The translations under genes and the position numbers were made by a program. The notes beneath the pieces were generated by a model. It was not told where the DNA came from, ran no database searches, and saw only the letters and a program-made list of their open reading frames with translations. A stretch of 64,000 nt of DNA, taken from positions 1-64,000 of IMG/VR virus record IMGVR_UViG_3300027896_000024; one strand, written 5' to 3'. Below, piece after piece: positions 20,775-40,441 of the stretch (the stretch's first letter is position 1; the number at the start of each line of letters is the position of its first letter). The stretch comes from a virus.

Positions 20775-21418
20775 GAGGTTAAGGATATGAGAACGAGAAC
20801 AAGCAAAAGGGAAACAAACCAAAGGCCAGAGGGGACAAGAAACCCGTCCTCGACCGGCGCGGCTTTCCCGGAGGTGGGGTTCTCGTCGAGCTTGAGCAGC
20901 CATCGCACCCTAGTTTTCTAGGCGCAGGTGGCACGGCGATCGATGATCCTAATTCGGGCTTTTGAGACTCCAAGCCGGGGCGACACGGTGAACCCGGAAG
21001 GAACAAATCGGAGAAAGCGGCTAGGTCGGCCTTAAGACTTTCACCTAAAGAAATCAGGCGAGTAGGGGAAAAGAGAGACGGGGAGACCCGGAGCATCGCG
21101 AAATCCTTTTCCAGCAAAAAGCCGGGTGAATAAAGGATCCGAGCAAAGCGAATCTGAGAGACGGCCAAATGACCCAGTGAGGGGAGGTCGTAAACCAGAT
21201 GAGTCGAGCGGAGTTCCTGGAAGGGGTAACGTCCCTAATTAGAGCGTGGGTACCTGAAAAATTCTTTCCCGTTTTGGTGGTCCGGTGGAAGGGATAAAAT
21301 CTAAGGTTAGCTAATTAGCAAAAGCGATAGACTCCGACCGCAAGTGCAGAGTTCCCGGCTATGCGGACGCCAAGCGAAAGCTCGGTAGGTTTTCTCTCAA
21401 ATCTCCTGTCGAGTTTTA
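20775..21418 (+). ncRNA. Candidate large structured ncRNA (about 650 nt)
   Basis: No convincing ORF over 650 nt in an otherwise dense genome; many hairpins; long-range pairings; bounded by the promoter and ribozyme 1. Confidence 0.5.
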
Positions 21419-21479: not shown

Positions 21480-21498
21480 ATCAAAAGGAGAGAACAAC

Positions 21499-21672
21499 AT
21501 GAAAAACAAAACATGGCCAAACGAAAAAGACGTTTGCTATGATTGCGGAAGCAACATTCCAGGACATCATACTCCGTCATGCGATTTTGCGGAACCTGAT
21601 GACAAGCGCGATTTACCTGAGCAGCCTGGTACTCAATGGTGGACACGTGAAGTACCTGCGGAGTTGAAATAG
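21499..21672 (+). CDS. 57-aa Cys/His protein (absent from the ORF track)
   Basis: AAGGAGAG RBS; MKNKTWPNEKDVCYDCGSNIPGHHTPSC...; TAG overlaps ribozyme 2. Confidence 0.7.
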   Translation: MKNKTWPNEKDVCYDCGSNIPGHHTPSCDFAEPDDKRDLPEQPGTQWWTREVPAELK

Positions 21673-22157: not shown

Positions 22158-22162
22158 TTCCT

Positions 22163-22219
22163 GCAGAGGGGGTCGGCTTCGGCCGACCTAATGCACATGC
22201 TGGGTCCCAAGTCCCAGCA
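22163..22219 (+). ncRNA. Twister ribozyme copy 3 (cut 22189/22190)
   Basis: P1 GGTCGGC-TTCG-GCCGACC; P4 TGCTGGG TCCCAAGT CCCAGCA. Confidence 0.87.
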
Positions 22220-22239
22220 CTTCAAAAAGGAGAGACAAC

Positions 22240-22380: not shown

Positions 22381-22437
22381 CAGAGGGCCAGGGTTCACGT
22401 CCCTGGTAATGCGGTAGGTCGGTCCCAAGCCCCGACC
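22380..22437 (+). ncRNA. Twister ribozyme copy 4 (cut 22407/22408)
   Basis: P1 CCAGGG/CCCTGG; P4 GGTCGG TCCCAAGCC CCGACC; T2 GGU/GCC. Confidence 0.82.
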
Positions 22438-22518
22438 ACAACGAATCATTCATTCCACAACACAACAAAACGGCCCAGGGCAAGGTAGGGCTGGAAAACC
22501 ACAAAAGGAGAGACAACA

Positions 22519-22983: not shown

Positions 22984-23048
22984 CAGAGGGGGGCCGAAAG
23001 GCCCTAATGCCCACCGGATATAGGATCCGGTCAGGTCCCAAGGCCTGA
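22983..23048 (+). ncRNA. Twister ribozyme copy 5, with P3 (cut 23005/23006)
   Basis: P1 GGGCC-GAAA-GGCCC; P3 ACCGGAT/ATCCGGT; P4 loop TCCCAAGG with compensatory T2 CC/GG. Confidence 0.87.
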
Positions 23049-23086
23049 GGGTATTACCAAAAAAGAGAGATTAAGGAGACAATACA

Positions 23087-23806
23087 ATGAGCAAAAAGCA
23101 GAATAACGGCACTGATGATGAATCATTGGTATTCGCTGGCAAGGAGCTCACGTTGGAAGATGAGATGAACATTCTCAAGGGCGGGACAGTAGGCCTGGAA
23201 CAGTTCCTCGAAAACTTCCAGTTTCTGATTTTCGTCCTGGACGAGTCGGGTTCGATGCAAGACCGGCTGCCGAGTGGAGATACTCCGAAGCGTGAGGTTC
23301 AGAAGCGGATTATCAAACGGTATGTGGACGAGAAGATCGGACGCAAGGCCGGCACGATGAAGATCGGTGTTGTCAGCTTCGATGATGAAGCGTCCGTTTG
23401 GCTCCAGGGTTCGTCGGATCCGGTTGCAATCAAGGCCGCGGCGGACCAGTGCAGGGGCGGTGGCGGTACGCACCTCGGGCGCGGAATTCTCAAGGGTCTT
23501 TCATTACTCCACCGGATGAAAGATTATATTCCCCGTCTCGTTCTTACGTCGGATGGTGAGGCACATGATCCGGCTCAGGCAATCGCCGGAGCGGAAGCGG
23601 CCAAGGCCAAGGGCGTCGTAATCGACACGGTGTACATTGGCCCTGGTGGGGGCGGTGACGTATATGCGGATAATGCGGCTGATCTTATGCGGAGAATCGC
23701 TGAGATCACCGGCGGCGTGTTCGAGCGCGTAAACAATCAGTCGGAATTCGAAACCAAGTTTTTCGATGTGATCAAGCGCCCGTTGCTTGCAACCAGTTTG
23801 AAGTAG
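23087..23806 (+). CDS. von Willebrand factor A (VWA) domain protein
   Basis: MIDAS DESGSM, GGGT, LTSDGE, IAEITGG. Confidence 0.88.
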   Translation: MSKKQNNGTDDESLVFAGKELTLEDEMNILKGGTVGLEQFLENFQFLIFVLDESGSMQDRLPSGDTPKREVQKRIIKRYVDEKIGRKAGTMKIGVVSFDDEASVWLQGSSDPVAIKAAADQCRGGGGTHLGRGILKGLSLLHRMKDYIPRLVLTSDGEAHDPAQAIAGAEAAKAKGVVIDTVYIGPGGGGDVYADNAADLMRRIAEITGGVFERVNNQSEFETKFFDVIKRPLLATSLK

Positions 23807-23811
23807 TCCTC

Positions 23812-23864
23812 GCAGAGGGGGGCCGGTAACGGCCCTAATGCACGGGCCGGTCCCAAGTCCGGTC
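23812..23864 (+). ncRNA. Twister ribozyme copy 6 (cut 23836/23837)
   Basis: P1 GGGCCG-GTAA-CGGCCC; P4 GGCCGG TCCCAAGT CCGGTC. Confidence 0.87.
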
Positions 23865-23897
23865 GTCATTACAAACCACAAAAAGGAGAGAACGATC

Positions 23898-24599
23898 ATG
23901 GTATATGCTGATGATTTTCCAGAGCAACAAAAACAACAGGAAGCGCGGAAAGCGGCTATTAGGGCTCACAGGGCCGAGATGGACGCTAAGATCGAACAGT
24001 GCACGTTGGCCTTAGTCGTCGCGTTGGAAAACTATGGCCACAAGGTAGAACGGCATGGGCACAAGCAGGACGACAAAGTGATCCTCGGCGACATCTATCA
24101 TATTGACGGGGTGTACTTTTGGGATCTGCAGTTCTACGAACAAGGGCTTTACGCTCCTGGTGGATATCTCAGGGGTGCCGGAAATGGTAAACTGGCATTG
24201 CATTATCAGGATCCGAATTCAGTGCTTCAAAGGCGCGTTATCATTCGTGAGAAGAAAAGCGGTTTTGATTACAACACAATCGCCGCTACGTTGATAGCCT
24301 TGGCAGCCCCGTTAATACCGGCTGCTAAGGAACGGTTGGAGCGGGAAGCGAAGCAGGCCGAGGCCAACGCCAAAGCGGAACAGATCCGGGACATGGCGAG
24401 CGCTTTACAGCAACAGTTTCGGAGCAAAACGTTGACGAACTTGAGTATTCAATATCAGAACTGGTGCGGCAAATTTGAGGTTTCGTTCAATACGGAGACC
24501 TTGGAAGAGGCGCAAGCAATTCTGAGCCGGTTGGTTCCGAATAAAACGGAATCGCCCGACGACGCAATCGAAGAAGCGAGGCGTAGAATACACGGTTAG
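23898..24599 (+). CDS. Hypothetical early protein
   Basis: AAGGAGAG RBS before ATG 23898. Confidence 0.7.
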   Translation: MVYADDFPEQQKQQEARKAAIRAHRAEMDAKIEQCTLALVVALENYGHKVERHGHKQDDKVILGDIYHIDGVYFWDLQFYEQGLYAPGGYLRGAGNGKLALHYQDPNSVLQRRVIIREKKSGFDYNTIAATLIALAAPLIPAAKERLEREAKQAEANAKAEQIRDMASALQQQFRSKTLTNLSIQYQNWCGKFEVSFNTETLEEAQAILSRLVPNKTESPDDAIEEARRRIHG

Positions 24600-24673
24600 C
24601 AGAGGGGGGCGAGCTAACACAGTCGCCCTAATGCACTAGTACATTCTTTAAGTACTAATGGTCCCAAGTCCAT
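24599..24673 (+). ncRNA. Twister ribozyme copy 7, with P3 (cut 24629/24630)
   Basis: P1 GGGCGA/TCGCCC; P3 TAGTAC/GTACTA; P4 ATGG TCCCAAGT CCAT. Confidence 0.83.
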
Positions 24674-24701
24674 AAACAAAAAAGAGAGAAGAGGAGATAA
24701 C

Positions 24702-25466
24702 ATGAACCCAAGGAAGCTGTTGGCACAGCTCAGGCGGGTGTATTCACAGTTTACCAAAATGGCTAAGCAGCCGATCGAGGACAGGAACAAGTTGCTCGTA
24801 TCTGCGGTGGCCATAATGGATGCTGTAGTGCGCCTGGCAATTGTTCAATACAAATCGCAACTGCCTCAGAACGCGGCCAAGCTTTTCGATATCGCGGGAA
24901 AGTGCAGAGCTAGGGCGATGAGTACAACATTCAACGAAGAGAAGGATTTATCACTTCGGATAGCACTTCTGAAAATGGAACAAATGATTCCCATGTTAAG
25001 CCCGCCGGCGTTTCAGCTCTATATTGACAAGTTCAATCTTAGGGCGTCGGCACATAAAGAGGGCAAGTCGGCCAAAGGTCCCAAAGCACCACGGGCACCA
25101 AGAACACCGGCGAGCGCCCAGCCTCAAAATCAGTATGGTGTACGGCGGAAGTTTTCTCCGGTGCCTCAAATAGTACCGGTTGGTTCGCCGCTGATTATCA
25201 ACATTCTATTTGCTAATCTAAAGACCCCGTTCAGGGCGTCTTCGGCAAAGGCAAAGGCATTTCGTTTCTGGTTCGAGGACTTCCGTACTAAGGAAGAGGT
25301 CGCTCAATACCTGAACCAGGTTACCAACGGGAAGGGCAAATCGCTAGTCTGGTTACTCTGGAACAAGAGGAACGGCGGCGACGAGTCGATGCACTGGTCG
25401 TTTATTCAAAAGGGCAACAAGAGCAAGCTGGTTGTATGCGATCCGACCAAGCTTCCGAAACCATAG
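24702..25466 (+). CDS. Basic protein with a C-terminal domain shared with 34305-35120
   Basis: TPFRASSAKAKAF...GGDESMHW vs TPFRAGSAKEKAF...GGDKSMSW. Confidence 0.7.
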   Translation: MNPRKLLAQLRRVYSQFTKMAKQPIEDRNKLLVSAVAIMDAVVRLAIVQYKSQLPQNAAKLFDIAGKCRARAMSTTFNEEKDLSLRIALLKMEQMIPMLSPPAFQLYIDKFNLRASAHKEGKSAKGPKAPRAPRTPASAQPQNQYGVRRKFSPVPQIVPVGSPLIINILFANLKTPFRASSAKAKAFRFWFEDFRTKEEVAQYLNQVTNGKGKSLVWLLWNKRNGGDESMHWSFIQKGNKSKLVVCDPTKLPKP

Positions 25467-25529
25467 CAGAGGGGCAGCAGGCCTGAGGAACCTGCTGCTA
25501 ATGCACATTCCGGGTCCCAAGTCCCGGAA
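25466..25529 (+). ncRNA. Twister ribozyme copy 8 (cut 25499/25500)
   Basis: P1 GCAGCAGG/CCTGCTGC; P4 TTCCGGG TCCCAAGT CCCGGAA. Confidence 0.87.
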
Positions 25530-25549
25530 CACAAAAAGGAGAGAGCAAC

Positions 25550-25768
25550 ATGGCAGAGATTTTGAAGTGCGAGAAATGCGGCCAAAAGAATAGGGTCGAT
25601 ATATCGCGTTTAGCTCAGTCTATGTGTGCTAAGTGCGGTTGTCCTTTATTTATTCGGCCAGCACCCGGAAGAGATCTTATTGGAGATCTGGCCAACAAGC
25701 TGGAAGCGGCAGCTAAGAATGAGAGGTTCCGTAGAACGCAGGAATACATTTATAGAAGTCGTAACTAA
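25550..25768 (+). CDS. Zinc-ribbon protein resembling the thioredoxin-2 N-terminal finger
   Basis: CEKCGQKNRV...CAKCG. Confidence 0.65.
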   Translation: MAEILKCEKCGQKNRVDISRLAQSMCAKCGCPLFIRPAPGRDLIGDLANKLEAAAKNERFRRTQEYIYRSRN

Positions 25769-25821
25769 GCAGAGGGGGGCCGAAAGGCCCTAATGCACGG
25801 CTTCGGTCCCAAGTCCGAAGC
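25769..25821 (+). ncRNA. Twister ribozyme copy 9 (cut 25791/25792)
   Basis: P1 GGGCC-GAAA-GGCCC; P4 GCTTCGG TCCCAAGT CCGAAGC. Confidence 0.87.
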
Positions 25822-25844
25822 GTCATTACAAAAAGGGAGACAAC

Positions 25845-26318
25845 ATGGAACCAAGACAGTTCGAGGCACAATGCTACAAAACACTGGAAGAGTACGATCG
25901 TACTTATTTCGGCAGCGTAGGCAGCGTGATCGGGATTCGCCTTACTCGGTTTGCTAGAGATTACGAAGCACTCCAGCAGTTCGAGGCAATAACGCGAAAA
26001 CGATTCGGGTTGGTTATGGTGACGCTGGGTATGTACGATTCGGAGTCTCGCCTGGTGTATCTTAATTACCACGTCAGGCACCTGGTAAATAAAGGCTACT
26101 TTACCACGGAGTTGCGGGCGGTCTTATACCATGAGTTGATTCATGCGGTCTTGTGCAATGCGCATCAGCCTATCAGGTTAGGGCTGTACCGCTGTTATTC
26201 ACAAGGCGGCCACGGACCTGCTTTTCAAAAGCTCTGGAACAGTAATAATGAGCTTCGAGAGGTAAACGTGCAGCCGTTATGTTCCGCGGTTTGGGACAGA
26301 ATGGAGAAGCGGCTATGA
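25845..26318 (+). CDS. SprT-like zinc metalloprotease
   Basis: VLYHELIHA and GHGPAF motifs. Confidence 0.8.
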   Translation: MEPRQFEAQCYKTLEEYDRTYFGSVGSVIGIRLTRFARDYEALQQFEAITRKRFGLVMVTLGMYDSESRLVYLNYHVRHLVNKGYFTTELRAVLYHELIHAVLCNAHQPIRLGLYRCYSQGGHGPAFQKLWNSNNELREVNVQPLCSAVWDRMEKRL

Positions 26319-26896
26319 ACATCCAGGCGTTTTTCGATCAGCTTAAACTCGAACTCTCATTACTTAAACACACGGTGGATGATGAGTTCGAGATGTTTGA
26401 TAATAGGCCGCTTCGGTTAACGGTCGCAGGTTCCTTGGGATCAGATTCCCAGGCAATCGCATTCGGTTTCTACGGAGATCGAAAAGTGCTTCGGGGTGCT
26501 ATGAGCCCCGAGGCTATTGCTTCCGCGATCCATATGTATCTGCAAACCAGGAACGTAGGTACCGGGGCAAAACCACAACCGAACAGAGACATTCTCAATA
26601 CCAAACGGCCGTACGATCAGTACAAACAGTCACAGCAACAAAGACCTCATACAAAACCGATCAAGCCTCAGGAACCTAAACGTCGAGTTTGGGCAATGGG
26701 GCCGTCACAGTTTCAGGGTACACCGCTAGACCAGTTAAGGTTGGCGGACTTCGATGGTAAGGTTCAAACAGTCACAGTCAAGGGTGAGATCAAGACGGCA
26801 TCAGACCTGGTGTTGGCGGACTTGCCCGAAAAACAACAGCTTATGCTCAAGATACTTGAGCGGGCACTCAATAGGTTGAACAAACAGTTATCCTAA
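26315..26896 (+). CDS. Hypothetical protein
   Basis: ATGA overlap with the SprT-like gene. Confidence 0.65.
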   Translation: MNIQAFFDQLKLELSLLKHTVDDEFEMFDNRPLRLTVAGSLGSDSQAIAFGFYGDRKVLRGAMSPEAIASAIHMYLQTRNVGTGAKPQPNRDILNTKRPYDQYKQSQQQRPHTKPIKPQEPKRRVWAMGPSQFQGTPLDQLRLADFDGKVQTVTVKGEIKTASDLVLADLPEKQQLMLKILERALNRLNKQLS

Positions 26897-26911
26897 AAAG
26901 GAGAGAACAAC

Positions 26912-27313
26912 ATGGCTAAGCGAGTTTTGACTTGCGGTAATGAGGATTGCAAGCAAAAGAATAACGTCGATATGGACCGCCTGAAGGCGGCCTACTGCGG
27001 GAAGTGCTCGTTTCCGATGTACATGGCCGTCGAACTCCAAGTTCGTGAGGACGAGGAGGAGGAATCGGTCGATGATCTGATTGACGAAATGGCCGGTGCG
27101 GAAGAGGACGATGAACCGGAAGAGGACGAGGAAGATGATTCGGAAGAGGAAGCCGAGGAAATCTTTCTCTGCCCGCTTTGTGGACAGACTGAGGTACCTG
27201 AGGAAGGGCGGGCCTGCTCCAAGTGCCTAGCCGCTCAGAAAAAAGCGGCCAAGGGCAAGGCAGGGGCGAAAAAACCCGCATCCAAGGGCAAGACCAAACC
27301 GAAAGTAAACTAG
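26912..27313 (+). CDS. Zinc-ribbon protein with acidic linker and basic tail
   Basis: N-terminal finger similar to 25550-25768; second CxxC...CxxC. Confidence 0.7.
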   Translation: MAKRVLTCGNEDCKQKNNVDMDRLKAAYCGKCSFPMYMAVELQVREDEEEESVDDLIDEMAGAEEDDEPEEDEEDDSEEEAEEIFLCPLCGQTEVPEEGRACSKCLAAQKKAAKGKAGAKKPASKGKTKPKVN

Positions 27314-27373
27314 CAGAGGGGACCGGGCCAGCACGGCCGGTCTAATGCGCAGTCCCGGTCCCAAGTCCGGGGC
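27313..27373 (+). ncRNA. Twister ribozyme copy 10 (cut 27343/27344)
   Basis: P1 GACCGG/CCGGTC; P4 GTCCCGG TCCCAAGT CCGGGGC; T2 GC/GU. Confidence 0.85.
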
Positions 27374-27420
27374 GCATTGTTAGTACTAACATTCATTCTC
27401 ACAAAAGGGAGAAAACGAAC

Positions 27421-27609
27421 ATGGCAATCAGTGCTGAAATCAAGGGCAAGAATTTGGTAGTGACGATTCCGGTTAACGATCCGCCTGAGCCTTCCGGTTC
27501 CGGCAAGTCGTTGGTGGTTGCGTCTTCGCACGGCAATCAGGAGACGACCTGCAAGGTGAACGGGAAGAACCTGGTGATCGGCCTGAACGCTTACATCCGC
27601 AACAAGTAG
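27421..27609 (+). CDS. Conserved small protein (SGSGKSLVVASSHGN family)
   Basis: 62 aa; S.SGKS.VVAS..GN...LN.Y pattern. Confidence 0.7.
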   Translation: MAISAEIKGKNLVVTIPVNDPPEPSGSGKSLVVASSHGNQETTCKVNGKNLVIGLNAYIRNK

Positions 27610-27668
27610 GCAGAGGGGGGCGGGCTAGTATAGCCGCCCTAATGCACAAGCCGGTCCCAAGTTCGGCT
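27610..27668 (+). ncRNA. Twister ribozyme copy 11 (cut 27640/27641)
   Basis: P1 GGGCGG..CTA/TAGCCGCCC; P4 AGCCGG TCCCAAGT TCGGCT. Confidence 0.85.
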
Positions 27669-27688
27669 ATTCAAAAAGGAGAGAACCT

Positions 27689-27955
27689 ATGGTACACGTT
27701 CCAAGGCAGTTGACTACGGAAGAGGCTATCATCGAGGCGTACGAGCTTACCTGGGATCAAATAGCCCCAGATATTCTAGGTCGCGATGAGACCGCCAGCG
27801 TCGATCGGGACACCGTCATGGATTGCTGCGCGGATCACGTTCGTATTCACGGCGCTATGTCCAAGGAAGTAGAGGCAGCGTACAAGCTGCTATCCTGGGA
27901 AGAAAAGAAGCGGTTGCTCAGGAAGGCGTTCCCGCACAAGACGTACGGATACTAG
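27689..27955 (+). CDS. Hypothetical early protein
   Basis: AAGGAGAG RBS. Confidence 0.7.
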   Translation: MVHVPRQLTTEEAIIEAYELTWDQIAPDILGRDETASVDRDTVMDCCADHVRIHGAMSKEVEAAYKLLSWEEKKRLLRKAFPHKTYGY

Positions 27956-27965
27956 GGAGGTTTAT

Positions 27966-28166
27966 ATGGCAGAGATCTCCAGATGGGCAAACACTCAAGC
28001 TACCGCAGAGGTTGCTTGTCCCCGTTGTGGTATGCAGGCCGGTGTTGAGTGCAGAACTCCAAAGATGCGTAGGTTATTCACAATTCACACCGAACGAGGG
28101 AATGCCTATTTTGCCAAGATAGGTCGTGACGAATGGCTTCGTAGGTACTCAATATCAAAACACTAG
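27966..28166 (+). CDS. Phage zinc-finger protein
   Basis: CPRCGMQAGVEC...HTER. Confidence 0.7.
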   Translation: MAEISRWANTQATAEVACPRCGMQAGVECRTPKMRRLFTIHTERGNAYFAKIGRDEWLRRYSISKH

Positions 28167-28220
28167 CAGAGGGCGGCCGGCAACGGCCGTAATGCACAGC
28201 TCGGGTCCCAAGTCCTGAGT
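28166..28220 (+). ncRNA. Twister ribozyme copy 12 (cut 28190/28191)
   Basis: P1 CGGCCG-GCAA-CGGCCG; P4 GCTCGGG TCCCAAGT CCTGAGT. Confidence 0.87.
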
Positions 28221-28240
28221 ATAAAAAAGGAGAGAACAAC

Positions 28241-28684
28241 ATGGATACAATCATCGAAGATAAACATTCGTTGGCACATCTTGAACAGGTCGTGCGTAAA
28301 TTGTTCGAGAGGTTGGATGTTTCCGAACTTCGTCGTGGTCCGCATCCGATACCAACAGGGATAGGCGAAATCAAGATTGACGATGAAACGCTGGACGTAT
28401 TCGGCGGCCTGTGGGCGGTTGCGTGCGAGATCACAGTAACCCGAAAGTATTTGGGTGGCCGGGGCCGCAAAGCAAAAGTTCCTGGATTTGTGGTCGGCGT
28501 CGTAGTACATCATCATAATTATCCGCATGAACCGGATGATTACGAACCTGTTGAAACGGGCCAGTTCGAGTCACCTTACAAAGCCGCAGAGGCTCTGGCA
28601 TTGTTGTATTACCAAGACCGTATCAATAGTGCGATGGAGGACATCAGCATGGCAGAGGTTGCGGAGCAGTTCCACGAAGATTAG
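28241..28684 (+). CDS. Hypothetical early protein
   Basis: AAGGAGAG RBS, 147 aa. Confidence 0.7.
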   Translation: MDTIIEDKHSLAHLEQVVRKLFERLDVSELRRGPHPIPTGIGEIKIDDETLDVFGGLWAVACEITVTRKYLGGRGRKAKVPGFVVGVVVHHHNYPHEPDDYEPVETGQFESPYKAAEALALLYYQDRINSAMEDISMAEVAEQFHED

Positions 28685-28734
28685 CAGAGGGGGGCCGCAA
28701 GGCCCTAATGCACGAGCTGGTCCCAAGTCCAGCT
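28684..28734 (+). ncRNA. Twister ribozyme copy 13 (cut 28706/28707)
   Basis: P1 GGGCC-GCAA-GGCCC; P4 AGCTGG TCCCAAGT CCAGCT. Confidence 0.87.
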
Positions 28735-28763
28735 AGGCAGATCACAAAAAGGAGAGAACAACG

Positions 28764-29300
28764 ATGGCTGATAAAGAGGTAGAGGCGACATATACCGAGG
28801 AGCCGTCTAAGTATCCTGTATTCGTGCAGGAGCTTATGGATCGCTTCAAGGCCGTTGAGCGCAAGCTAACGGAAAACAAGTATCAAATGGACGCAGAGTT
28901 AAAGCGTACCCAGGAGCGCCTGGAGGCCAGTTATACCAAGCAGCGGGATTTGGACGGGCAGAAGTTAATCGTTCATTTCCTGGAAGTGTTGGATAATCTG
29001 GATTGGGCATTATCACATGCTACTGAATCGGCCGACAGCTTTCATTCGGGTGTACGTCTAGTGGCGGATCTGTTTCGGAAGAAACTCCAGCAACTAGGCG
29101 TAGTACTCGTACCGTTGAAGGACAAGCCTTACGATCCGGAATTCGCGCAAGCTATCTTTGCACAAGAGGTAGATAAGCCCGAGTTACACGGCATCGTGCT
29201 TCAAGAACACGTCACTTGCTACGCGATTGATGCGACTATCATCCGTCCTGGTCAAGTGGTCGTAGGCAAGAAGCGGGAGGTGTCTAATGGTAGCGGTTAA
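28764..29300 (+). CDS. grpE: GrpE-like nucleotide exchange factor
   Basis: N-terminal coiled coil, LEVLDNLDWAL, GVRLV, YDPEFAQAI, Y...IIRPGQVVV. Confidence 0.8.
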   Translation: MADKEVEATYTEEPSKYPVFVQELMDRFKAVERKLTENKYQMDAELKRTQERLEASYTKQRDLDGQKLIVHFLEVLDNLDWALSHATESADSFHSGVRLVADLFRKKLQQLGVVLVPLKDKPYDPEFAQAIFAQEVDKPELHGIVLQEHVTCYAIDATIIRPGQVVVGKKREVSNGSG

Positions 29301-29538
29301 GTGCTGTAAGTGTTTTCGGAATACCAACAAGTTCCGGTGTTGTTCCTGCGGTCACAGTATTTGTACTTCATGTAAAGAGCAGACTCGAAAATTACCGGTT
29401 CGCAAGTTGGTGAGTGACGAGGACTTGTTATTCCTGTTGGAAGTATTTGAACGGTCTGGCCAGTCATTATCCTATCGGGCCAAGGTGTACCGAGTAGAGG
29501 CTATGCATCGCGGTCTTATCAAGAAGGAGGCCAAGTGA
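29287..29538 (+). CDS. Cys-rich zinc-finger protein
   Basis: CCKC...CCSCGHSICTSC. Confidence 0.6.
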   Translation: MVAVKCCKCFRNTNKFRCCSCGHSICTSCKEQTRKLPVRKLVSDEDLLFLLEVFERSGQSLSYRAKVYRVEAMHRGLIKKEAK

Positions 29539-29738
29539 AAAGGAAGAGGTTGATGGTCGTTGTACAACCGGTAACAAATCTCCCGGGCTTGTATACCTGG
29601 TCAATACAACGGGCTGGCCGGGTGATTGCGATATACCCGGAGACGTACAAAACAAAGGACTCGGCTATTCGTTATGCTGAGCCCTTTGCTCAGGAAATCG
29701 GAGCAACATTCGCTACCGAAAAGGAGGTACAGGGTTAG
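29535..29738 (+). CDS. Small protein, YegP/DUF1508-like pattern
   Basis: YTWSI...GRVIA..PETYKTKDSAIR. Confidence 0.5.
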   Translation: MKRKRLMVVVQPVTNLPGLYTWSIQRAGRVIAIYPETYKTKDSAIRYAEPFAQEIGATFATEKEVQG

Positions 29739-29796
29739 CAGAGGGGACCGGTCTGAGGGCCGGTCTAATGCGCATGGTCGGTCCCAAGTCCGACCA
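29738..29796 (+). ncRNA. Twister ribozyme copy 14 (cut 29766/29767)
   Basis: P1 GACCGGTC-TGAG-GGCCGGTC; P4 TGGTCGG TCCCAAGT CCGACCA. Confidence 0.87.
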
Positions 29797-29808
29797 AGGG
29801 AGGCACCT

Positions 29809-30477
29809 ATGAGGCGTATTTCTCGTGAGGGGTGGCGCCGGCGTAAGATCGCTGAGTACTACCAACGGCGGGACGATGAACGAATACAAAAAAGGGAGGA
29901 CAACATGATTACACCAGAATATGTTGAATGGGAAAAGGCTCAGGAGCGGGCAGCTTTTGAGTCTAAGATGCGCAGGGACGAGGCTTTGGAAAAGCAGTCC
30001 CAAGTGCAGCAGAGGAAGACAATGGCGGATACGAGCAATCAGGATTCAGCCGTGCCGGCACAGCTCAAGGACTTGATGTTGATATTCGCTGGTAATGCAT
30101 ATTTCACAATTCGAAACAACACAACAGGCAATCGCTTCACGTTTCGCGTATCGGTTTCAAAACCGAATCCACAATTTCCGAACCCGGTTCACTTCGTTAG
30201 TGTACTCTGCGGGCCGGATAACCGTACGAACTATGCGTATATCGGGTTCGTCAGCAAAGCACTTCAATATCGGCACGCAGTCAAGTCAATCATCACGGAA
30301 CAAGCGGTATCTGTTCAAGCTTTCAAATGGTTACTGGCTAGGGTAGCTACTAAGCAGCCCTTGCCTCCCGAAGTGCAGATCTGGCACGAGGGTCGGTGTT
30401 GCCGATGTGGCCGAATGCTAACAGTTCCTGAGTCCATTGAGCACGGCCTAGGGCCGGAATGCTACGGGAGGATATGA
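29809..30477 (+). CDS. DUF6011-like protein (alternative start 29905)
   Basis: C-terminal GRCCRCGRMLTVPESIEHGLGPEC. Confidence 0.75.
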   Translation: MRRISREGWRRRKIAEYYQRRDDERIQKREDNMITPEYVEWEKAQERAAFESKMRRDEALEKQSQVQQRKTMADTSNQDSAVPAQLKDLMLIFAGNAYFTIRNNTTGNRFTFRVSVSKPNPQFPNPVHFVSVLCGPDNRTNYAYIGFVSKALQYRHAVKSIITEQAVSVQAFKWLLARVATKQPLPPEVQIWHEGRCCRCGRMLTVPESIEHGLGPECYGRI

Positions 30478-30707
30478 TGCGAGTTACTCAGATGGAACGC
30501 GCTGCGATTCTCCAGATGTTTGTACTCCCGGATGGTGTATCGTATCTCGGGGAGCAACCGGATCCGGCTGGCGGGTCGATATCACTTTATCACGATGTAG
30601 TCACAGGGTCGTCATTCATGGTTCACGAAGGCGAAAACATCGAGCAGGCGGTAAACAGAATCCGAGAATCATTTTTCCCGGAGGAATTCAAGGTTTGGGA
30701 AGCATAG
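30474..30707 (+). CDS. Hypothetical protein
   Basis: GGAGG RBS; ATGA overlap; TAG overlaps ribozyme 15. Confidence 0.6.
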   Translation: MMRVTQMERAAILQMFVLPDGVSYLGEQPDPAGGSISLYHDVVTGSSFMVHEGENIEQAVNRIRESFFPEEFKVWEA

Positions 30708-30803
30708 CAGAGGGGGTGGTTGCCTTTACAAAAGTAGGCATTAAATGGTAGGGCCTGATCCTATCAGCCACCTAATGCGGCAGTCCTGGTCCCAAGTCCC
30801 AGG
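30707..30803 (+). ncRNA. Twister ribozyme copy 15, with branched P1 extension (cut 30773/30774)
   Basis: P1 GGTGGT/GCCACC enclosing two hairpins; P4 CCTGG TCCCAAGTC CCAGG; T2 GGC/GUC. Confidence 0.8.
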
Positions 30804-30828
30804 CGCAGAAAATGGTTGTTGTCTCCTA

Positions 30829-30879
30829 GGCGGGCAACGGGTCTGGTGCGTTGCCAGATCCGACCCGCCCTTTTATTTT
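30829..30879 (+). terminator. Intrinsic terminator closing the ribozyme-punctuated unit
   Basis: GGCGGG..CGGGTCTGG/CCAGATCCG..CCCGCC stem then TTTTATTTT. Confidence 0.8.
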
Positions 30880-30890
30880 AGGAGTTCGCT

Positions 30891-31019
30891 ATGGAAGAAC
30901 CGCTTGAGGATATAGACTTAGAGTGTCCTGTTTGCGGGTGGATATCCTGCGATCACTTATCAACGGATATTGTCATATGTCCAGACGATCGAGTTCAGTT
31001 AGTGCCAGTAAAAGAGTAG
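30891..31019 (+). CDS. 42-aa zinc-ribbon peptide (absent from the ORF track)
   Basis: AGGAG RBS; MEEPLEDIDLECPVCG...CPDD. Confidence 0.5.
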   Translation: MEEPLEDIDLECPVCGWISCDHLSTDIVICPDDRVQLVPVKE

Positions 31020-31099
31020 TTGATTGCCCTCAGCTTGGCGTCCGTGTAGCTGGGAATTCGTGTGTTTACGCGGTTCCTGGCCGAAAGGAGGCATCCTAG

Positions 31100-32686
31100 A
31101 TGGTGTTAGCTTATGCTCCTGGGCTTAGTGTGTACATAGTGTTCTGTACGATCAAGGAAAAGAGTATTCCTGCTCGTGCGGGATTTGTATACAACAAGCT
31201 AGTTCGTAGGCGGTGGGCTACTAAAGATCCGAATGTGGCAAATATCCTTTGGAAGTATGCTGTGCCTGCTTGTAAGGTTCAAATAGGCAAGGATCTTGTT
31301 GCGTCAAAAGTAATCCAGAAAAAATCAAAGGCAGTTAGTTCTGTTACGGAATATCCCTGTCCAGAAGGTATTGATTATCTCCCGTTTCAAAAGGCCGGAA
31401 TAGACTTCATGCTGGAGCGAGATAGTGTATTCTGTGCGGATGATATGGGTGTGGGCAAGACGATAGAGGCATTGGGTGTACTCAATACGGATACGTCGTT
31501 AATATCTATTTTGGTAGTGACAAAGGCAGTACTCAAGATAAACTGGTTAAGGGAGATACAAAAGTGGCGGGCTCGTAAAATGTCGGTGGGTATTGTCTGG
31601 CCAAATCATACGGAATTACCGAAGACAAATATCGTCGTAATTAACTATGACTTGTTAGATAGATTTCACTTGTCCGGATTACGTAATAGAAAATGGGACT
31701 GTATCATCCTGGACGAAGGGCACTATCTAAAGAACCCGAAAAAGAAACGCACTCGTGCTGTATTTGGATATAATGACAGGAAGCGTCACTTCGTTTGTCT
31801 ACCGTTAGAAGCTAGGCGTAAAATGGTGTTAACTGGAACGCCTATGGAGAACCGGCCAAAAGAATTATTTTCATTGCTTCATTGGTTAGATCCCATAGCT
31901 TGGCCCAGCTGGTTTAGATATGCGCAAAGATACTGCGATCCCAAGTTCAATGGCTTCGGAACCACGTATAAAGGGGCGTCAAATGTAGCGGAATTGAGGG
32001 CACGCCTTCGGGGTACACTTATGATACGGCGGGAGTTTACCGAGGTGTTTCCTGAGCTGCCGCCGGTTAGATACCAGATAATCGAAATACCCGTACAGAG
32101 TTCTACAATAAAAAAGCTTGTAACCCGTGAGCTGTATGATTACAATCAATTTTTACAAAAGGGAGTTTCGCGCAAGGTTGCTTTTGCAGAGATGTCGGCG
32201 TTAAGGCACCAGTTAGCCGTCTATAAGCGACCGTTAATCCAGTCATATCTCGAAGGCCTTCGTGAGGAGTCCCCAAGTAGAAAACTGATAGTGTTCGGGC
32301 ATCATCACGATGTACTTGATGGCCTGCATTTATCATTTCCTGATTCAGTTTTAGTCAGGGGTGGACAAGATGCTACCGATCGTCAGAGATCAGTAGACAA
32401 GTTTCAAAACGATATACGGTGCAACATGTTTCTTGGGTCGATTGCAGCTGCGGGGGAGGGCTTGAATTTGTACGCATCCAGTTTAGTTATATTCGGGGAA
32501 TTCGATTGGCGTCCTGGTAAGATACTTCAAGCTATCGGGCGCGCTTTGAGACTGGGACAAAAGGATCGCGTTCTGATTCAATATCTCGTACTGGCAGGTT
32601 CACTTGATTTCAAGCTCATTACAACGTTCGTGAACAAGCACATAGTAAATAAGGAGATTCTCGGTGACAAAAGGGAGATCATTTGA
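31100..32686 (+). CDS. SNF2-family (HARP/SMARCAL1-like) helicase
   Basis: ADDMGVGKT, ILDEGH, LTGTP, GEGLNL, QAIGRALRLGQ. Confidence 0.9.
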   Translation: MVLAYAPGLSVYIVFCTIKEKSIPARAGFVYNKLVRRRWATKDPNVANILWKYAVPACKVQIGKDLVASKVIQKKSKAVSSVTEYPCPEGIDYLPFQKAGIDFMLERDSVFCADDMGVGKTIEALGVLNTDTSLISILVVTKAVLKINWLREIQKWRARKMSVGIVWPNHTELPKTNIVVINYDLLDRFHLSGLRNRKWDCIILDEGHYLKNPKKKRTRAVFGYNDRKRHFVCLPLEARRKMVLTGTPMENRPKELFSLLHWLDPIAWPSWFRYAQRYCDPKFNGFGTTYKGASNVAELRARLRGTLMIRREFTEVFPELPPVRYQIIEIPVQSSTIKKLVTRELYDYNQFLQKGVSRKVAFAEMSALRHQLAVYKRPLIQSYLEGLREESPSRKLIVFGHHHDVLDGLHLSFPDSVLVRGGQDATDRQRSVDKFQNDIRCNMFLGSIAAAGEGLNLYASSLVIFGEFDWRPGKILQAIGRALRLGQKDRVLIQYLVLAGSLDFKLITTFVNKHIVNKEILGDKREII

Positions 32687-33149
32687 TTTGAGCCTGTATA
32701 CTGAGTCCTTGGCACGGAGGGCTTTTTTCAAGAACCTAGATAACAGTTTAGCATTGGAGGACTATAAGCAGATAGCGGCAATGTCAGTACTTAGGGCACG
32801 CAGGAGATTCAGGAAGGCAAAGAAAACCAAGTTCGAAACTTTTGCTATTCATTGTGTCAAGAACAGTCTTGTCACTATGACCCGCCGGCAAAAACCATCT
32901 GGATACGAATTAATGGAGGAAATAGCCACAGACCCCAAGGACGATTTTGTTTTTCGTGTGCAATCATTTATTACTAGTTGTCAGTCGTTGTCGGAGGCAG
33001 CCCAACAAGTCGCCAATGGTTTATTGGGTATTTGGACATTACCAACAGTTTCGTTGACTAGCTTTCGGCGATCACTTCGAATGTCAAAGTTAGACTTCAA
33101 TCGAGCCTGCAAGGAATTACGGACAAGATTTCATGGGGAGGTAGTATAA
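32664..33149 (+). CDS. Phage sigma-factor-like protein
   Basis: EDYKQIA...LRARRRF...TKFETFAIHCVKN resembles sigma70 region 2. Confidence 0.65.
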   Translation: MTKGRSFDLSLYTESLARRAFFKNLDNSLALEDYKQIAAMSVLRARRRFRKAKKTKFETFAIHCVKNSLVTMTRRQKPSGYELMEEIATDPKDDFVFRVQSFITSCQSLSEAAQQVANGLLGIWTLPTVSLTSFRRSLRMSKLDFNRACKELRTRFHGEVV

Positions 33150-33155
33150 CAAGAC

Positions 33156-33614
33156 ATGCAACTGAAAAAGAAGTTCAGGTTTGAGGCGAGTCATATACTA
33201 TCAAAGCACCCGGGCAAGTGTTCTCGGTTACACGGCCATAGCTGGGTGTTACACGTGATGGTGGAAGGCCCTGTAAATCCAGATACCGGGTTTGTCATGG
33301 ACTATGGGGATATTTCCAAGGCAGTGAAGCCTATCGTTGAGGATCTGGATCATAGGCATTTGGGAGTCTGGGATGTGTTCGCGGAGGACAGTAATATAGG
33401 TACTGCGCGTTGCCGGGCACTCCCGCTTGAGTTCTATTCTACGTCAGAGAATTTACTGATGAGGATTGCAGAACTGCTTATGATCTCATTGCCTCAGTGG
33501 TCAGCACTCAGCCTGGAAGAAACGTGTACGTCGGAGGCATTGCTACTTCGGTGTGAATATGACCAGTTCGTAATGGATCAGAAAGAGAGGAGCGATGCAG
33601 CTGCTCGTAAATGA
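33156..33614 (+). CDS. queD: 6-carboxy-5,6,7,8-tetrahydropterin synthase
   Basis: FEASH, CSRLHGHSW, DLDHRHL, TSENL, EET. Confidence 0.93.
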   Translation: MQLKKKFRFEASHILSKHPGKCSRLHGHSWVLHVMVEGPVNPDTGFVMDYGDISKAVKPIVEDLDHRHLGVWDVFAEDSNIGTARCRALPLEFYSTSENLLMRIAELLMISLPQWSALSLEETCTSEALLLRCEYDQFVMDQKERSDAAARK

Positions 33615-34302
33615 GATATTCAGGTCAGTACAAGGGGAAGGCCTACTAATGGGCCAGCCTTCCGTATTTCTCAGGTTGTCGTTGTGTAATGTCAATTGTC
33701 CGATGTGCGATACGGATTATCACCAAGGAGTCAAGGTGAGTCTTTCCGATATTGTAAAGGCTATTACCGGTCCGTATGCACGCGGCGGAATTCGTCATTT
33801 GGTGATTACAGGTGGCGAGCCGTACATACATCCGGCATTGTCGGAGTTTCTGGCTACGATGCGGGAGCTACATCGCGATTGGCACATCACAATCGAAACG
33901 TCAGGTTCTATAGTTCCGGGCACTGTTCTGAATTTGGACTTGTTATCACTATCCCCGAAGTTTATGTCGCTAAAGCCGGCAGAAAATTCTCACATGGGAT
34001 TGAATATTCTGAAGGAGTCATTCCTGCGTATCCTGGAACTGCCTCGTAAAGAGAATAGCTGCCAGGTTAAGCTAGTTTGGACAGGAGATCCTGTGGATGT
34101 TCCAGACTGGTTACCTGATATGATATCGGACTTAGCACAGAACAGTATTCCGGTATTCTTTCAGCCTATGACAGATGGCAGAGAGTTCGAATTAAATTCT
34201 TACTTAAAACTGTTTGCCAAAGTCACGGCAGCCGTTCAAAATACGTTCGGTGCATATCCTCGGACGTTACCGCAGTTGCACAAGTTCTGTAACTGGAGGT
34301 AG
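33595..34302 (+). CDS. queE: 7-carboxy-7-deazaguanine synthase (radical SAM)
   Basis: EIFRSVQGEG, CNVNCPMCDT, ITGGEP, IETSG, LSPK, PQLHK. Confidence 0.93.
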   Translation: MQLLVNEIFRSVQGEGLLMGQPSVFLRLSLCNVNCPMCDTDYHQGVKVSLSDIVKAITGPYARGGIRHLVITGGEPYIHPALSEFLATMRELHRDWHITIETSGSIVPGTVLNLDLLSLSPKFMSLKPAENSHMGLNILKESFLRILELPRKENSCQVKLVWTGDPVDVPDWLPDMISDLAQNSIPVFFQPMTDGREFELNSYLKLFAKVTAAVQNTFGAYPRTLPQLHKFCNWR

Positions 34303-36876: not shown

Positions 36877-37958
36877 TTGTGAAATTATCGGACTTTTTGG
36901 CAGCTATGAAATATGCCTGGCGGGCAGTGTCGCCAGGCGATTTTGTTTCGAACTTCCGGTTTATAAGTTTTGAGTCATTTGCAGGGTTAAAGATCCTGCG
37001 GCTCCGGGCTTTCAATGGCACGTTGGGTGTAGAGGTGGATGTTCCTACCAGAAACCCGGATGCGTTCAAGCCATTTGTGGTGGATGCGGATAGACTGATG
37101 CGTTATCTGCAGAGCTTCGACGCTGCGGACTCGAGGGCCGTCGAGCTTACACTGGAAAAGTCCCGTTGTGTATTCAGCTTTCAGAAAGCCGGCAAGATAG
37201 CGTTAACACCGGCCCAGTTGAAGACCCCGTTTTGGAAAGCTCCCGACGAGCAGGGTGTTGACTGGTGTTTGACAATGGACAAGAAATTCAGGGAGTCCTG
37301 CAAACTGGTGTTATCTATAGCGGGATTGGACACGGCCCGACTTGTTACGCAGGGTATATTTATGGAAGGATCCAGGTTGCACGTAACATCCGGGGCCGCA
37401 ATCGGGGAATCCACGGCCAAAGCAAAGTTCTCAAAGCCCATGGCAATGGTGTACGATTTCGTTCGTATCCTGGTTGAGATAGGGACGGATATTGAGGTGG
37501 GAACCGGCAAGAATTTTGTAGTAGCTAAAACAGGGACTGTCAAGTTTGTCCAGTCTTTGTTTCGGTGTCCGGCACCTGACTTCGATTCCATGTTGAAGAA
37601 CTATCGGAAACCGCAAGCAGCGGTTACAGTGAACCTGAAGGAGTTCGTCGAGAAGTTCCGTCGTATTGGTAATATGACCGATCAACAAAACCGGGGAGTA
37701 AAGCTGGTATTCAAGGCCGGTATGTTGCGCTTCGGATTTGAGGATAGTGAAGTGCATGTACGTGAAGCAATTACGTACAAAGGAAACTACGATGGCGAGA
37801 TTCTGTTAAATTTCGCGTATATCAAAGGGTATCTCGATGAGCTTGTGGCCCGTCCTTTAAAGCAGTTACAGTTAGGATTTATCGGGGCCGGCAAAGGTCT
37901 TGTATTCAGGATAGCTGAGCCGTTTGTACTTGTCCTGCTTCCGATGGTGAAATTATGA
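36873..37958 (+). CDS. DNA sliding clamp (DnaN/beta-like)
   Basis: About 361 aa; C-terminal 'ILLNFAYI...VLLPMV' like beta clamps; next to the polymerase; DnaX-like gene present. Confidence 0.7.
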   Translation: MIVKLSDFLAAMKYAWRAVSPGDFVSNFRFISFESFAGLKILRLRAFNGTLGVEVDVPTRNPDAFKPFVVDADRLMRYLQSFDAADSRAVELTLEKSRCVFSFQKAGKIALTPAQLKTPFWKAPDEQGVDWCLTMDKKFRESCKLVLSIAGLDTARLVTQGIFMEGSRLHVTSGAAIGESTAKAKFSKPMAMVYDFVRILVEIGTDIEVGTGKNFVVAKTGTVKFVQSLFRCPAPDFDSMLKNYRKPQAAVTVNLKEFVEKFRRIGNMTDQQNRGVKLVFKAGMLRFGFEDSEVHVREAITYKGNYDGEILLNFAYIKGYLDELVARPLKQLQLGFIGAGKGLVFRIAEPFVLVLLPMVKL

Positions 37959-40441
37959 AACCGGATCCACAGCAGTTGGAATTTATAGAGAACCCGACGG
38001 TCAGGAAGGTACCACGATCGTCGGGGAAAACCAAAAAACCAAAGCCATTGTTGGGATGTGACGATTGCCCTCTGAACTACCGGTTGGAGTATCGAGTGCC
38101 GGGTGATGGGGATGTCAATTCGGATATATGGTTTGTAGGGGAAGGTCCCGGATTAAAAGAGGCACAAAGTCATCATCCGTTTGTGGGCGATTCCGGGGAT
38201 CTGCTATGGGAGGAAGCAAGAAAGTTTGGTATTACCAGGGACATGGTAGCTGTGCGAAATGCGGTACAGTGTTGGCCGCCAGGAAACAGGACGCCAACGT
38301 CATTGGAAGTGAAGCATTGCATCGGATACCTGGAAGAGGAACTGCGTAAGTATAGACCCAAAGTAGTTATCACTCTGGGAGCTACAGCCTTACAGGCATT
38401 GATGGGTAAGAAGTACAAGATCACGGAATGTCATGGTCAGGAATTAATACGGGAAGATGGTATCAAAGTAGTACCTATATTTCATCCGTCATTTTTACTA
38501 TGTAATGGAAAAGATCCTGATTTGATGAAGGTATGGCGAATCGGGATGCTACGTGGAATCAACGCTGCAAAGTCTGCGGGCCGTACGTCAATACTGGAGT
38601 CTGCCGGATTCAAGTGGACGATATTAAAGGCAAGTCGTTTTGCGGAATATCTCCGGTTTGTTATGCCTCGCTGGGCGGCTTGGGATATTGAAACACACGG
38701 CAAGGACGGGGAGCCGTTTCTTATTTCAAGTGCATGGGGAAAGAACAGAGGAATCGTTTCCGACTGGGATGAAGTGAAGCATCTGTTAGTCGAGTACATG
38801 GAGAGTAGCGCCAAGAAAGTGTGGCAGAACGGATGCGGATTTGATATACCACGAATCGAGAGGGATTTAGGTGGAATCCGAATGGGTGGTTACGACTGGG
38901 ACACGTTTGTGGCCGGCGTAACTATCGACTCTCGTAGGGGTAGAAATAATCTGACTCGTTTAACTGAATGGGCAGCTCCTGAAATAGCAGGGTATGACGG
39001 CGAACTAGAGCGATACGTAAAAAAGAACAAAGTACAGGATTATGCGGATATTCCCCGGGAAATCATTCTGCCGTACTCTGCGGGTGATGCGATATCAACA
39101 GGAATTGTCAAGATCAAGCAGGAGCCTTTGGCTAGCCGTCCTCTGGTAGAGTTCTATATGGAACTGGTGCGGGATGTTTTGTATCCTATGGAGAAGCGGG
39201 GTATTCGCACCGATGTAAAGTTTTTGGATACCATGATCGCGCACTATACAAAGGAGAATGAGAAGATAATCGGACGATTAAAGGCAATGTCAGGGGAGCC
39301 CGACTTCAATCCTGGTTCGAACGAGCAGATGTCTTGGTTTCTGTTCGATCACTTGGAATTGCCCCAAACTGGTGTTAAGCTATCACCTAAAACGAACTTG
39401 CCATCGGTGGACAAGAATACGATGGCATTACTCAAGGGCAAGCATCCTGCGGTAGCGTTGACAACACAGTTGCGGTCGAACGATAAATCACTCAAGACCT
39501 ACGGAATTCGTATTCGTAAAAATCTTGTGAATACGGATCGTTTCCGCGTGAAGTATTGGATAGGTGGTGCGGACAAGGAGGACAAGGACAGAGGGGCGGA
39601 GACGGGTCGTCTATCATCGCCTTTGCAGAATATTCCCCGTGTGAACAAGGACAATCCTAGGGCCTATGAGCCGGCAGATATATTCATTCCGGATCCGGGG
39701 TATGTATTCTTGGTGCCGGATTACTCTCAGGCTGAGTTACGCGTAGCGGCATTGTTATCTCAAGACGAACAAATGATTGAGGACTTCCAAAATAATATTG
39801 ATGCGCATACCGCTGTATGCTGGAACTATTTGGGAGTGCCGAGAGGAACAAAGCCGAACAAGGAAACCAGGGTCCGGGCGAAGGTGATTAACTTTTCCAA
39901 GATATTTGGAGCTTCTGCTAACGGGCTTGCTAGGAACCTGGGATGTTCGGTGGAAGAGGCACTTAAGCTGTTGTATAACGACATGAAAAAGTACCCGGGT
40001 TATTGGGCATGGCGGAAAGCACAGATCATCCGGGTATGGAAGAAACGTTATGCGATGACGTTGTTCGGATTCAAACGGCCTATCGAAATTCCGGACGAGC
40101 GATTTTATTACGATCCGTTGTCATTACAACACTGGCAGCGGCAAGCCTTGAATACACCGGTCCAGGGTACAGCTAGTCAGTTCCTGTTACTCGGAATGGT
40201 TATCATCAAAAGGTTGAATCTAAAGTCTGGTGAGATGCTGATGAACATTCACGACTCGGCACCTATGCAAGTGAAGATAGGTAAAGAACAGAAAATCGGT
40301 AAAATAGTCAAGTGGGCATTGGAAGTTGCGATTGTGGACGAGGTTCGCAAACGGTTTAATAAGGACATATCACAGGTGCCCTGGACGGTGGAAATATCAA
40401 CAGGGCCTAGGTTGTCCAAGCTACAAGAAATCGCCGTATAA
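37955..40441 (+). CDS. Family A DNA polymerase with N-terminal family-4 uracil-DNA-glycosylase domain and 3'-5' exonuclease
   Basis: UDG: CDDC, VGEGPG, PFVG, CWPPGNRTP, HPSF. Exonuclease: DIET. Polymerase: TGRLSS, DYSQAELR, RVRAKVINF, NTPVQG, IHDS. Confidence 0.93.
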   Translation: MKPDPQQLEFIENPTVRKVPRSSGKTKKPKPLLGCDDCPLNYRLEYRVPGDGDVNSDIWFVGEGPGLKEAQSHHPFVGDSGDLLWEEARKFGITRDMVAVRNAVQCWPPGNRTPTSLEVKHCIGYLEEELRKYRPKVVITLGATALQALMGKKYKITECHGQELIREDGIKVVPIFHPSFLLCNGKDPDLMKVWRIGMLRGINAAKSAGRTSILESAGFKWTILKASRFAEYLRFVMPRWAAWDIETHGKDGEPFLISSAWGKNRGIVSDWDEVKHLLVEYMESSAKKVWQNGCGFDIPRIERDLGGIRMGGYDWDTFVAGVTIDSRRGRNNLTRLTEWAAPEIAGYDGELERYVKKNKVQDYADIPREIILPYSAGDAISTGIVKIKQEPLASRPLVEFYMELVRDVLYPMEKRGIRTDVKFLDTMIAHYTKENEKIIGRLKAMSGEPDFNPGSNEQMSWFLFDHLELPQTGVKLSPKTNLPSVDKNTMALLKGKHPAVALTTQLRSNDKSLKTYGIRIRKNLVNTDRFRVKYWIGGADKEDKDRGAETGRLSSPLQNIPRVNKDNPRAYEPADIFIPDPGYVFLVPDYSQAELRVAALLSQDEQMIEDFQNNIDAHTAVCWNYLGVPRGTKPNKETRVRAKVINFSKIFGASANGLARNLGCSVEEALKLLYNDMKKYPGYWAWRKAQIIRVWKKRYAMTLFGFKRPIEIPDERFYYDPLSLQHWQRQALNTPVQGTASQFLLLGMVIIKRLNLKSGEMLMNIHDSAPMQVKIGKEQKIGKIVKWALEVAIVDEVRKRFNKDISQVPWTVEISTGPRLSKLQEIAV

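Follow-up and report, generated by a model that had tools for sequence, protein, structure and literature searches.

The last self-cleaving ribozyme in an early-gene array of a freshwater phage is followed by a short, terminator-ended segment that is complementary to the leaders of the array genes. This match exceeds chance. The segment ranks first for predicted pairing to 13 array leaders within the window, by which we mean the whole stretch of DNA analysed here (the initial 64 kb of an IMG/VR phage record that is 82.9 kb long and comes from a freshwater metagenome). We tentatively propose that this tail may be an antisense RNA that occludes the ribosome-binding sites of the array, a reading that we hold to be quite possible, if somewhat short of an even prospect.

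The twister array and its predicted last cleavage product

The + strand carries every gene of the window. In the interval 21418-30802, Rfam identified 15 twister ribozymes of type P5 (12 above the gathering score and 3 within 1 bit), with no second RNA family in the array region. The ribozymes alternate with small genes to which no function was assigned. A near-consensus promoter (20740-20768) lies upstream of these array genes, and replication genes, including an SNF2 helicase (31100) and a UDG-PolA gene (37955), lie downstream. The UDG-PolA gene (37955-40441) encodes an 828-aa protein with a uracil-DNA glycosylase-superfamily domain (residues 49-188) and a family A DNA polymerase. The penultimate array protein (29809-30477; P0022 and P0120 are named with it) has a C-terminal DUF6011 domain (E = 1.8e-12). 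In some distant relatives, the SNF2 helicase itself carries a fused DUF6011 domain (PF19474), a hint that this array gene and the neighbouring helicase are functionally connected.

Ribozyme 15 scored 36.7 bits, compared with a gathering score of 37.6, and had an E-value of 2e-6 on the local stretch (RF02684). The shortfall was due to an insertion of about 40 nt in the P1 loop. In the alignment, the core blocks GCAGAGGG, UAAUGC and GGUCCCAAG were all intact, and P1, P2 and P4 paired. On the basis of twister biochemistry, we take the predicted cut to lie between U30773 and A30774. Ribozyme 15 should then free a 106-nt 3' product that would extend from 30774 to about 30879.

The predicted fold of this tail (-39.6 kcal/mol for the whole RNA) consisted of a 5' hairpin, an unpaired linker and a terminator (Table 1). 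The P4 hairpin is lengthened by UGCG/CGCA pairing, so that the new 5'-OH end would be closed by a stem. The anti-leader motif GTTGTTGTCTCCT was located at exactly 30815-30827, and it was accessible in silico, with an opening cost of 1.0 kcal/mol and an unpaired probability mostly between 0.5 and 0.9. Downstream, a 16-bp GC-rich hairpin (30829-30869; stem pairing probability about 1.0) is followed by CTTTTATTTT (30870-30879). The arrangement is that of an intrinsic terminator, a stable GC-rich hairpin directly 5' of a U-tract. A simple terminator scanner missed this hairpin because the stem is long and bulged.

A sequence-only reading of this DNA had described a hairpin-protected small RNA here, and the position that it gave for the motif was confirmed. 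The predicted 5' hairpin, unpaired seed and intrinsic terminator together give the tail the anatomy of a base-pairing small RNA. Its remark that the motif is not followed by a start codon on the minus strand was also correct, as CATTTTC comes next. It further held that no gene follows ribozyme 15. We found no RBS-preceded ORF from 30802 to the terminator; the statement therefore stands for transcripts that stop at the terminator, but not for read-through transcripts, because a Shine-Dalgarno (SD) sequence lies 1 base past the U-tract and is followed by an ATG at 30891.

Several other annotations of this segment were considered and rejected. The ORF at 30745-30915 lacks an SD and crosses both the ribozyme core and the terminator, and a 5-codon ORF at 30812 also lacks an SD. 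A minus-strand gene or a bidirectional terminator was discarded given the missing start codon past the motif, the lack of a minus-strand T-run and the + orientation of all genes. A promoter-like match at 30851-30879, within the terminator, had only 9 of 12 matches and would imply a 5-nt leader without an SD.

Table 1. Positions of the tail, its predicted targets and related features. Coordinates refer to the window unless a locus is named; total energies are pairing energy minus the opening energies of both partners.
Feature	Position	Strand	Basis or energy
Twister-P5 ribozyme 15, last of the array	30706..30802	+	Rfam match, core intact
5' end of the predicted 3' cleavage product	30774..30807	+	Minimum-free-energy fold, pairing probabilities
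Unpaired linker holding the anti-leader seed GUUGUUGUCUCCU (30815-30827)	30808..30828	+	Exact position, fold
Intrinsic terminator, stem GGCGGG..CGGGUCUGGU/GCCAGAUCCG..CCCGCC, then CUUUUAUUUU	30829..30879	+	Fold
Gene 1 leader/RBS (AAGGAGAGAACAACA), predicted target	21485..21499	+	Total -17.8 kcal/mol
Leader/RBS past ribozyme 6, predicted target	23883..23900	+	Total -16.4 kcal/mol
Leader/RBS past ribozyme 8, predicted target	25536..25550	+	Total -17.5 kcal/mol
Leader/RBS past ribozyme 9 (GGGAGACAACAU; 11 contiguous pairs), predicted target	25834..25846	+	Total -16.5 kcal/mol
Leader/RBS past ribozyme 12, predicted target	28227..28241	+	Total -16.7 kcal/mol
Leader/RBS past ribozyme 13, predicted target	28749..28766	+	Total -14.1 kcal/mol
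Canonical leader AGGAGAGAACAAC of gene 26912, not directly ribozyme-preceded, predicted target	26898..26912	+	Duplex -19.1 kcal/mol
Second, weaker anti-leader-like pyrimidine tract (GGUUUUCUCUCAAAUCUCCUGU; GGTTTTCTCTCAAATCTCCTGT)	21385..21406	+	Duplex scan
SD UAGGAG (30879-30884) and 42-codon ORF (ATG 30891), possible cis partner	30879..31019	+	Fold
Block ACTCTCTTTCTTTTCTCCT of the low-GC phages	L129:513-531, L131:250-268, L134:576-594, L107:2353-2371, L111:3812-3830		

Predicted pairing with the array leaders

Most ribozyme-preceded genes share the leader consensus CAAAAAGGAGAGAACAAC-AUG. Exact copies of AGGAGAGAACAAC were found four times (21486, 26899, 28228 and 28750), and close variants precede most of the ribozyme-preceded genes. 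Perfect complements that the sequence-only reading had picked out in the array were all present where it placed them: GGAGACAACA (25836-25845), GAGACAACAA (22510-22519), GAGACAACA (22232-22240) and AGGAGACAA (23074-23082).

When pairing was corrected for accessibility, 9 of the 14 ribozyme-preceded start regions gave values between -14 and -18 kcal/mol. Array start regions were the better predicted partners of the tail, with a median of -16.7, while the 82 start regions elsewhere in the window had a median of -10.3 (Mann-Whitney p = 1.4e-5). The complement is not confined to the anti-SD; it runs on into the spacer (ACAAC/GUUGU).

The in-array genes at 26315, 27966, 29287, 29535 and 30477 are not directly preceded by a ribozyme and do not have the canonical leader. 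Gene 29809, located past ribozyme 14, also lacks it.

Genes without the canonical leader were poor predicted targets (-8.6 to -12.9), with the exception of 26315 at -16.7. Any regulation by the tail would therefore be selective within the operon.

How often such a match would arise by chance

Every second sense-strand 22-mer of the window (32,000 positions) was paired in silico with each of the 13 leader start regions, and its RNAduplex energies were averaged. The tail linker ranked 1 of 32,000, with a mean of -18.2 kcal/mol; the background was -6.0 ± 1.9, and the next-best locus reached -16.0. The fourth-best locus (21385-21406; mean -14.6 kcal/mol) forms the 3' end of a non-coding 5' leader of about 680 nt, directly before ribozyme 1. 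The array transcript has a non-coding piece at each end, and these pieces contain two of the five best anti-leader loci.

These values bear on a reading in which the tail is an inert by-product and the 13-mer either matches by chance or is a decaying leader fragment in inverted orientation. Ribozyme 15 would then only give the last early mRNA the standard 3' end (P1 hairpin plus cyclic phosphate), or it would be left over from a lost cassette. Inverted matches are indeed frequent: the 10 kb of the array contain 92 inverted pairs that are 12 nt or longer, including a perfect 13-mer, so that a lone 13-nt inverted match means little. The case for the tail stands instead on its match to a multi-copy leader and on its position, both of which were spotted post hoc. 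By post hoc extrapolation of the scan tail, loci this strong would occur roughly 0.1 times per 64 kb, which is not negligible. By position, the best anti-leader of the window lies in the 21-nt linker of a terminator-ended fragment, and the chance of one landing in the 105-nt fragment is roughly 1e-4 to 1e-3, again as a post hoc extrapolation. The flanks of the 13-mer have no further likeness to a leader cassette and so give no sign of descent from an inverted copy. Taking these points together with the comparison of array phages below, we regard an inert tail as rather unlikely, though still to be reckoned with.

Anti-leaders in other twister-array phages

Close relatives of the phage were sought in several collections. 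A distant blastn search of the phage GenBank collection with 28000-34000 gave no match. Relatives of the adjacent SNF2 helicase in IMG/VR had at most 35% identity, and none had a twister; those in the JGI metagenomes had at most 44% identity, likewise with no twister. Scanning IMG/VR for a twister together with the leader of the window returned only an unrelated phage, and the GTDB genomes gave two chance matches only, without a twister. A protein search detected one helicase at 66% identity (P0002), on a 78.5-kb Logan contig. Of the sequencing runs, a single DNA run, which is probably from the source sample, and no RNA run was listed as containing this DNA; the contigs of the DNA run included one identical contig and no variants.

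Type-P5 twister arrays themselves are common in IMG/VR, where at least 115 stretches carried the twister pattern. Five phages among the matches listed, G001-G005 (loci L128-L134; IMG/VR contigs 3300014204_000010, 3300034993_000085, 3300029286_000074, 3300005077_000022 and 3300038673_000493), had 13, 9, 14, 8 and 20 type-P5 copies, respectively, with a near-identical leader behind nearly every copy. Further arrays were present in partial loci. In all five phages, the last detected ribozyme was followed by an ordinary leader and a gene, and no orphan tail was found.

On the sense strand of G001, G003, G005, L107 and L111, the top anti-leader reached z-scores of -5.3 to -6.3. In these five low-GC phages, the anti-leader sits in non-coding, ORF-poor sequence ahead of the array and of the first early gene. 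On its 3' side come one or two hairpins, an SD and an ATG, in this order. The anti-leader consists of an invariant 19-nt polypyrimidine block, ACTCTCTTTCTTTTCTCCT, that is complementary to the purine leaders of the arrays. This block was the sole long invariant one in the five aligned regions, which were otherwise 53% identical, and a short TTAAAAAC(G) box was conserved about 250 nt upstream of it. Rfam gave no match around the low-GC anti-leaders, and the ACTCTCTTTCTTTTCTCCT region may represent an undescribed leader RNA family.

The leaders of the low-GC phages, AGGAG[G/A]AAAGAGAGUAUG, differ from those of the window, and the anti-leaders differ likewise. The window anti-leader paired with its own start regions at -17.5 kcal/mol and with the low-GC start regions at -9 to -10.6 kcal/mol. 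Conversely, the low-GC anti-leader gave -17 to -24 kcal/mol with its own start regions and about -13 kcal/mol with those of the window. Whichever anti-leader was taken, its own-lineage pairing was stronger than its cross-lineage pairing by 6-8 kcal/mol. In both lineages, the complement runs up to the start codon and no further, and no minus-strand gene is present. As the five low-GC phages share one anti-leader sequence, they count as one lineage, and the covariation has n = 2. The matched anti-leader of the second lineage, which has stayed invariant while the sequence around it diverged, argues against an inert tail.

Other arrays had no anti-leader, which counts in favour of an inert by-product. 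The complete array phages G002 and G004 showed none within 3 mismatches, and none was found in several GC-rich arrays with very short leaders. Twister arrays therefore do not generally include an anti-leader. An ungapped search of the 115 twister loci among the matches listed (at most 2 mismatches per 15) gave 3 hits, compared with 17 in the reversed control. The low-GC anti-leader carries an insertion, which made this search too insensitive.

Some twister-array phages might encode a dedicated anti-leader RNA that serves as an RNA-only regulon switch, a generalization that we consider doubtful at present. Such an RNA would be set free at one end of the operon, by a ribozyme or by a terminator, and would pair with the shared array leader. 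If so, it would be an RNA counterpart of T4 RegA/RegB, would account for the alike SD-to-AUG spacers of a dozen unrelated genes and would provide the first natural example of a self-cleaving ribozyme that sets free a trans-acting regulatory RNA.

Predicted pairing with the next gene and the proposed mechanism

Another explanation places the target next door. The tail could be a cis leader-attenuator for the following gene block, in which CUCCUA (30823-30828) closes the SD on read-through. Ribozyme 15 would then be the 5' processing site for the mRNA of 30891 and the replication genes, the hairpin would be a regulated terminator, and the likeness to the array leaders would be a side effect of the anti-SD. 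The spacing fits this explanation, since ATG 30891 is only 89 nt past the ribozyme and other copies reach 84 nt. Predicted folds of the read-through transcript formed a 6-bp CUCCUA/UAGGAG helix around the terminator. Opening the SD-to-AUG region was predicted to cost 9.1 kcal/mol when the tail was present. Leaving out the tail lowered this cost to 6.7 kcal/mol, and altering the anti-SD in silico lowered it to 4.2 kcal/mol. Moreover, the layout of anti-leader, hairpins, SD and ATG recurs before the first early gene of G001, G003, G005 and L107, and in these four the minimum-free-energy folds paired the anti-leader with the start region of that gene.

However, pairing with the next SD uses only 6 nt of the 13-mer and leaves GUUGUUGU unaccounted for. 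The start region of the next gene gave a duplex of -10.6, compared with an array-leader average of -17.5. In four of the five low-GC phages, the anti-leader likewise fitted the array leaders (-17 to -22) better than the adjacent start region (-9 to -14). Among these phages the 19-nt block does not vary, in contrast to the start regions of the adjacent first genes. Because the complement extends past CUCCU into GUUGUUGU, because the neighbouring start region is a poor partner here and the poorer partner in the four low-GC phages, and because the block is invariant next to variable start regions, trans or long-range pairing is favoured over purely local pairing, and we think that a purely cis-acting tail is improbable. 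The same CUCCUA may also clamp the SD of the next gene on read-through, as the two roles are compatible.

Under the antisense proposal, the cut by the last twister would yield the tail with its hairpin-closed 5'-OH end. The exposed, pyrimidine-rich seed of 13-21 nt would pair with the leader of most of the liberated mRNAs, from the Shine-Dalgarno sequence to the start codon, and would block 30S binding. As the tail RNA accumulated, translation of the early genes would be turned down. Cleavage, termination, accumulation, in-cell pairing and repression are all steps that we infer. With one tail made per 13 leaders, the half-life of the tail must far exceed that of the mRNAs for this to work.

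The sequence-only reading had cast the RNA as a feedback timer that is made last. This idea does not generalize, since the low-GC anti-leader lies at the operon's 5' end, so that its transcription would come first. It is further weakened by the ratio of one tail to 13 leaders, by G002 and G004, which have no anti-leader, and by the predicted cis role.

Comparison with known systems

The system closest in its workings is the c4 RNA of phages P1 and P7, an antisense RNA that is processed from its own immI operon and blocks a ribosome-binding region (Citron & Schuster 1992, PMC312442; PMC8546580). In both cases, a small antisense RNA cut from the transcript that carries the target would act in trans on a ribosome-binding region. 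c4 is freed by host RNase P from the 5' end of its operon and has one target region, whereas the tail would be released by a twister from the 3' end and would face about a dozen near-identical leaders. Since Rfam gave only twister in the region, the tail is to be seen as an analogue of c4 and not as a member of its family.

CpxQ and SroC are small RNAs derived from 3' ends; they are released by RNase E and are usually Hfq-dependent. Like them, the tail would come from the 3' end of a coding transcript, share its intrinsic terminator and carry its seed upstream of the hairpin, but a ribozyme would generate its 5' end (5'-OH, closed by a hairpin). In Listeria, the terminated riboswitch RNAs SreA and SreB act in trans. 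They resemble the tail in that a short terminator-ended leader RNA doubles as a base-pairing regulator; unlike them, the tail has no evident ligand-sensing domain, and it would begin at a ribozyme cut instead of a transcription start.

Phage T4 uses the endoribonuclease RegB and the repressor RegA to shut off many early mRNAs at their SD or initiation regions, and RegB cleaves within GGAG (PMC1702504, PMC3014915). The logic is the same, but RegA and RegB are proteins and the tail would be a base-pairing RNA, so the analogy is functional only.

Clusters of ribozymes that flank phage genes have been described for hammerhead (Perreault et al. 2011, PMC3088659) and twister (PMC6765202, PMC10085705) ribozymes. 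As in the window, these are self-cleaving and lie between operon genes, and since 2011 they have been proposed to cut operons into gene-length mRNAs (PMC3088659, PMC6765202). Their purpose is still called unknown (PMC6765202, PMC10085705). In this ribozyme-cluster literature (PMC3088659, PMC6765202, PMC10085705), no non-coding end product with an anti-leader seed is described.

If the antisense proposal is true, such arrays would gain a regulatory logic that combines processing with feedback or shut-off and needs no protein, and ribozyme cleavage would join the known routes of small-RNA biogenesis. The system is compact, with one seed and about twelve near-identical targets, and the lineage-matched anti-leaders of other array phages open the idea to comparative genomics.

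Other twister contexts

We surveyed 242 twisters in other contigs for gene-less tails and found none like that of the window. About 51 of the 242 had no obvious RBS and ORF after them, and most of these belonged to one unrelated single-twister family.

Sample 3300045988 contained about 40 loci (e.g. L013, L016, L040 and L066) on homologous phage contigs of 70-150 kb, each with a single twister-P5. This twister is followed by at least 140 nt of conserved non-coding sequence (…CAGAAGGGCGCTCCACCGC…GATTTGATTTTGAT…), with no leader and gene.

A different arrangement was seen at L134:4312-4400 (about 89811-89900 of G005), where a canonical leader and then a mini-ORF of 6 codons come after an array ribozyme. 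Behind the mini-ORF lies an ATACTCC...GGAGTAT hairpin, which would sequester the SD of the next gene.
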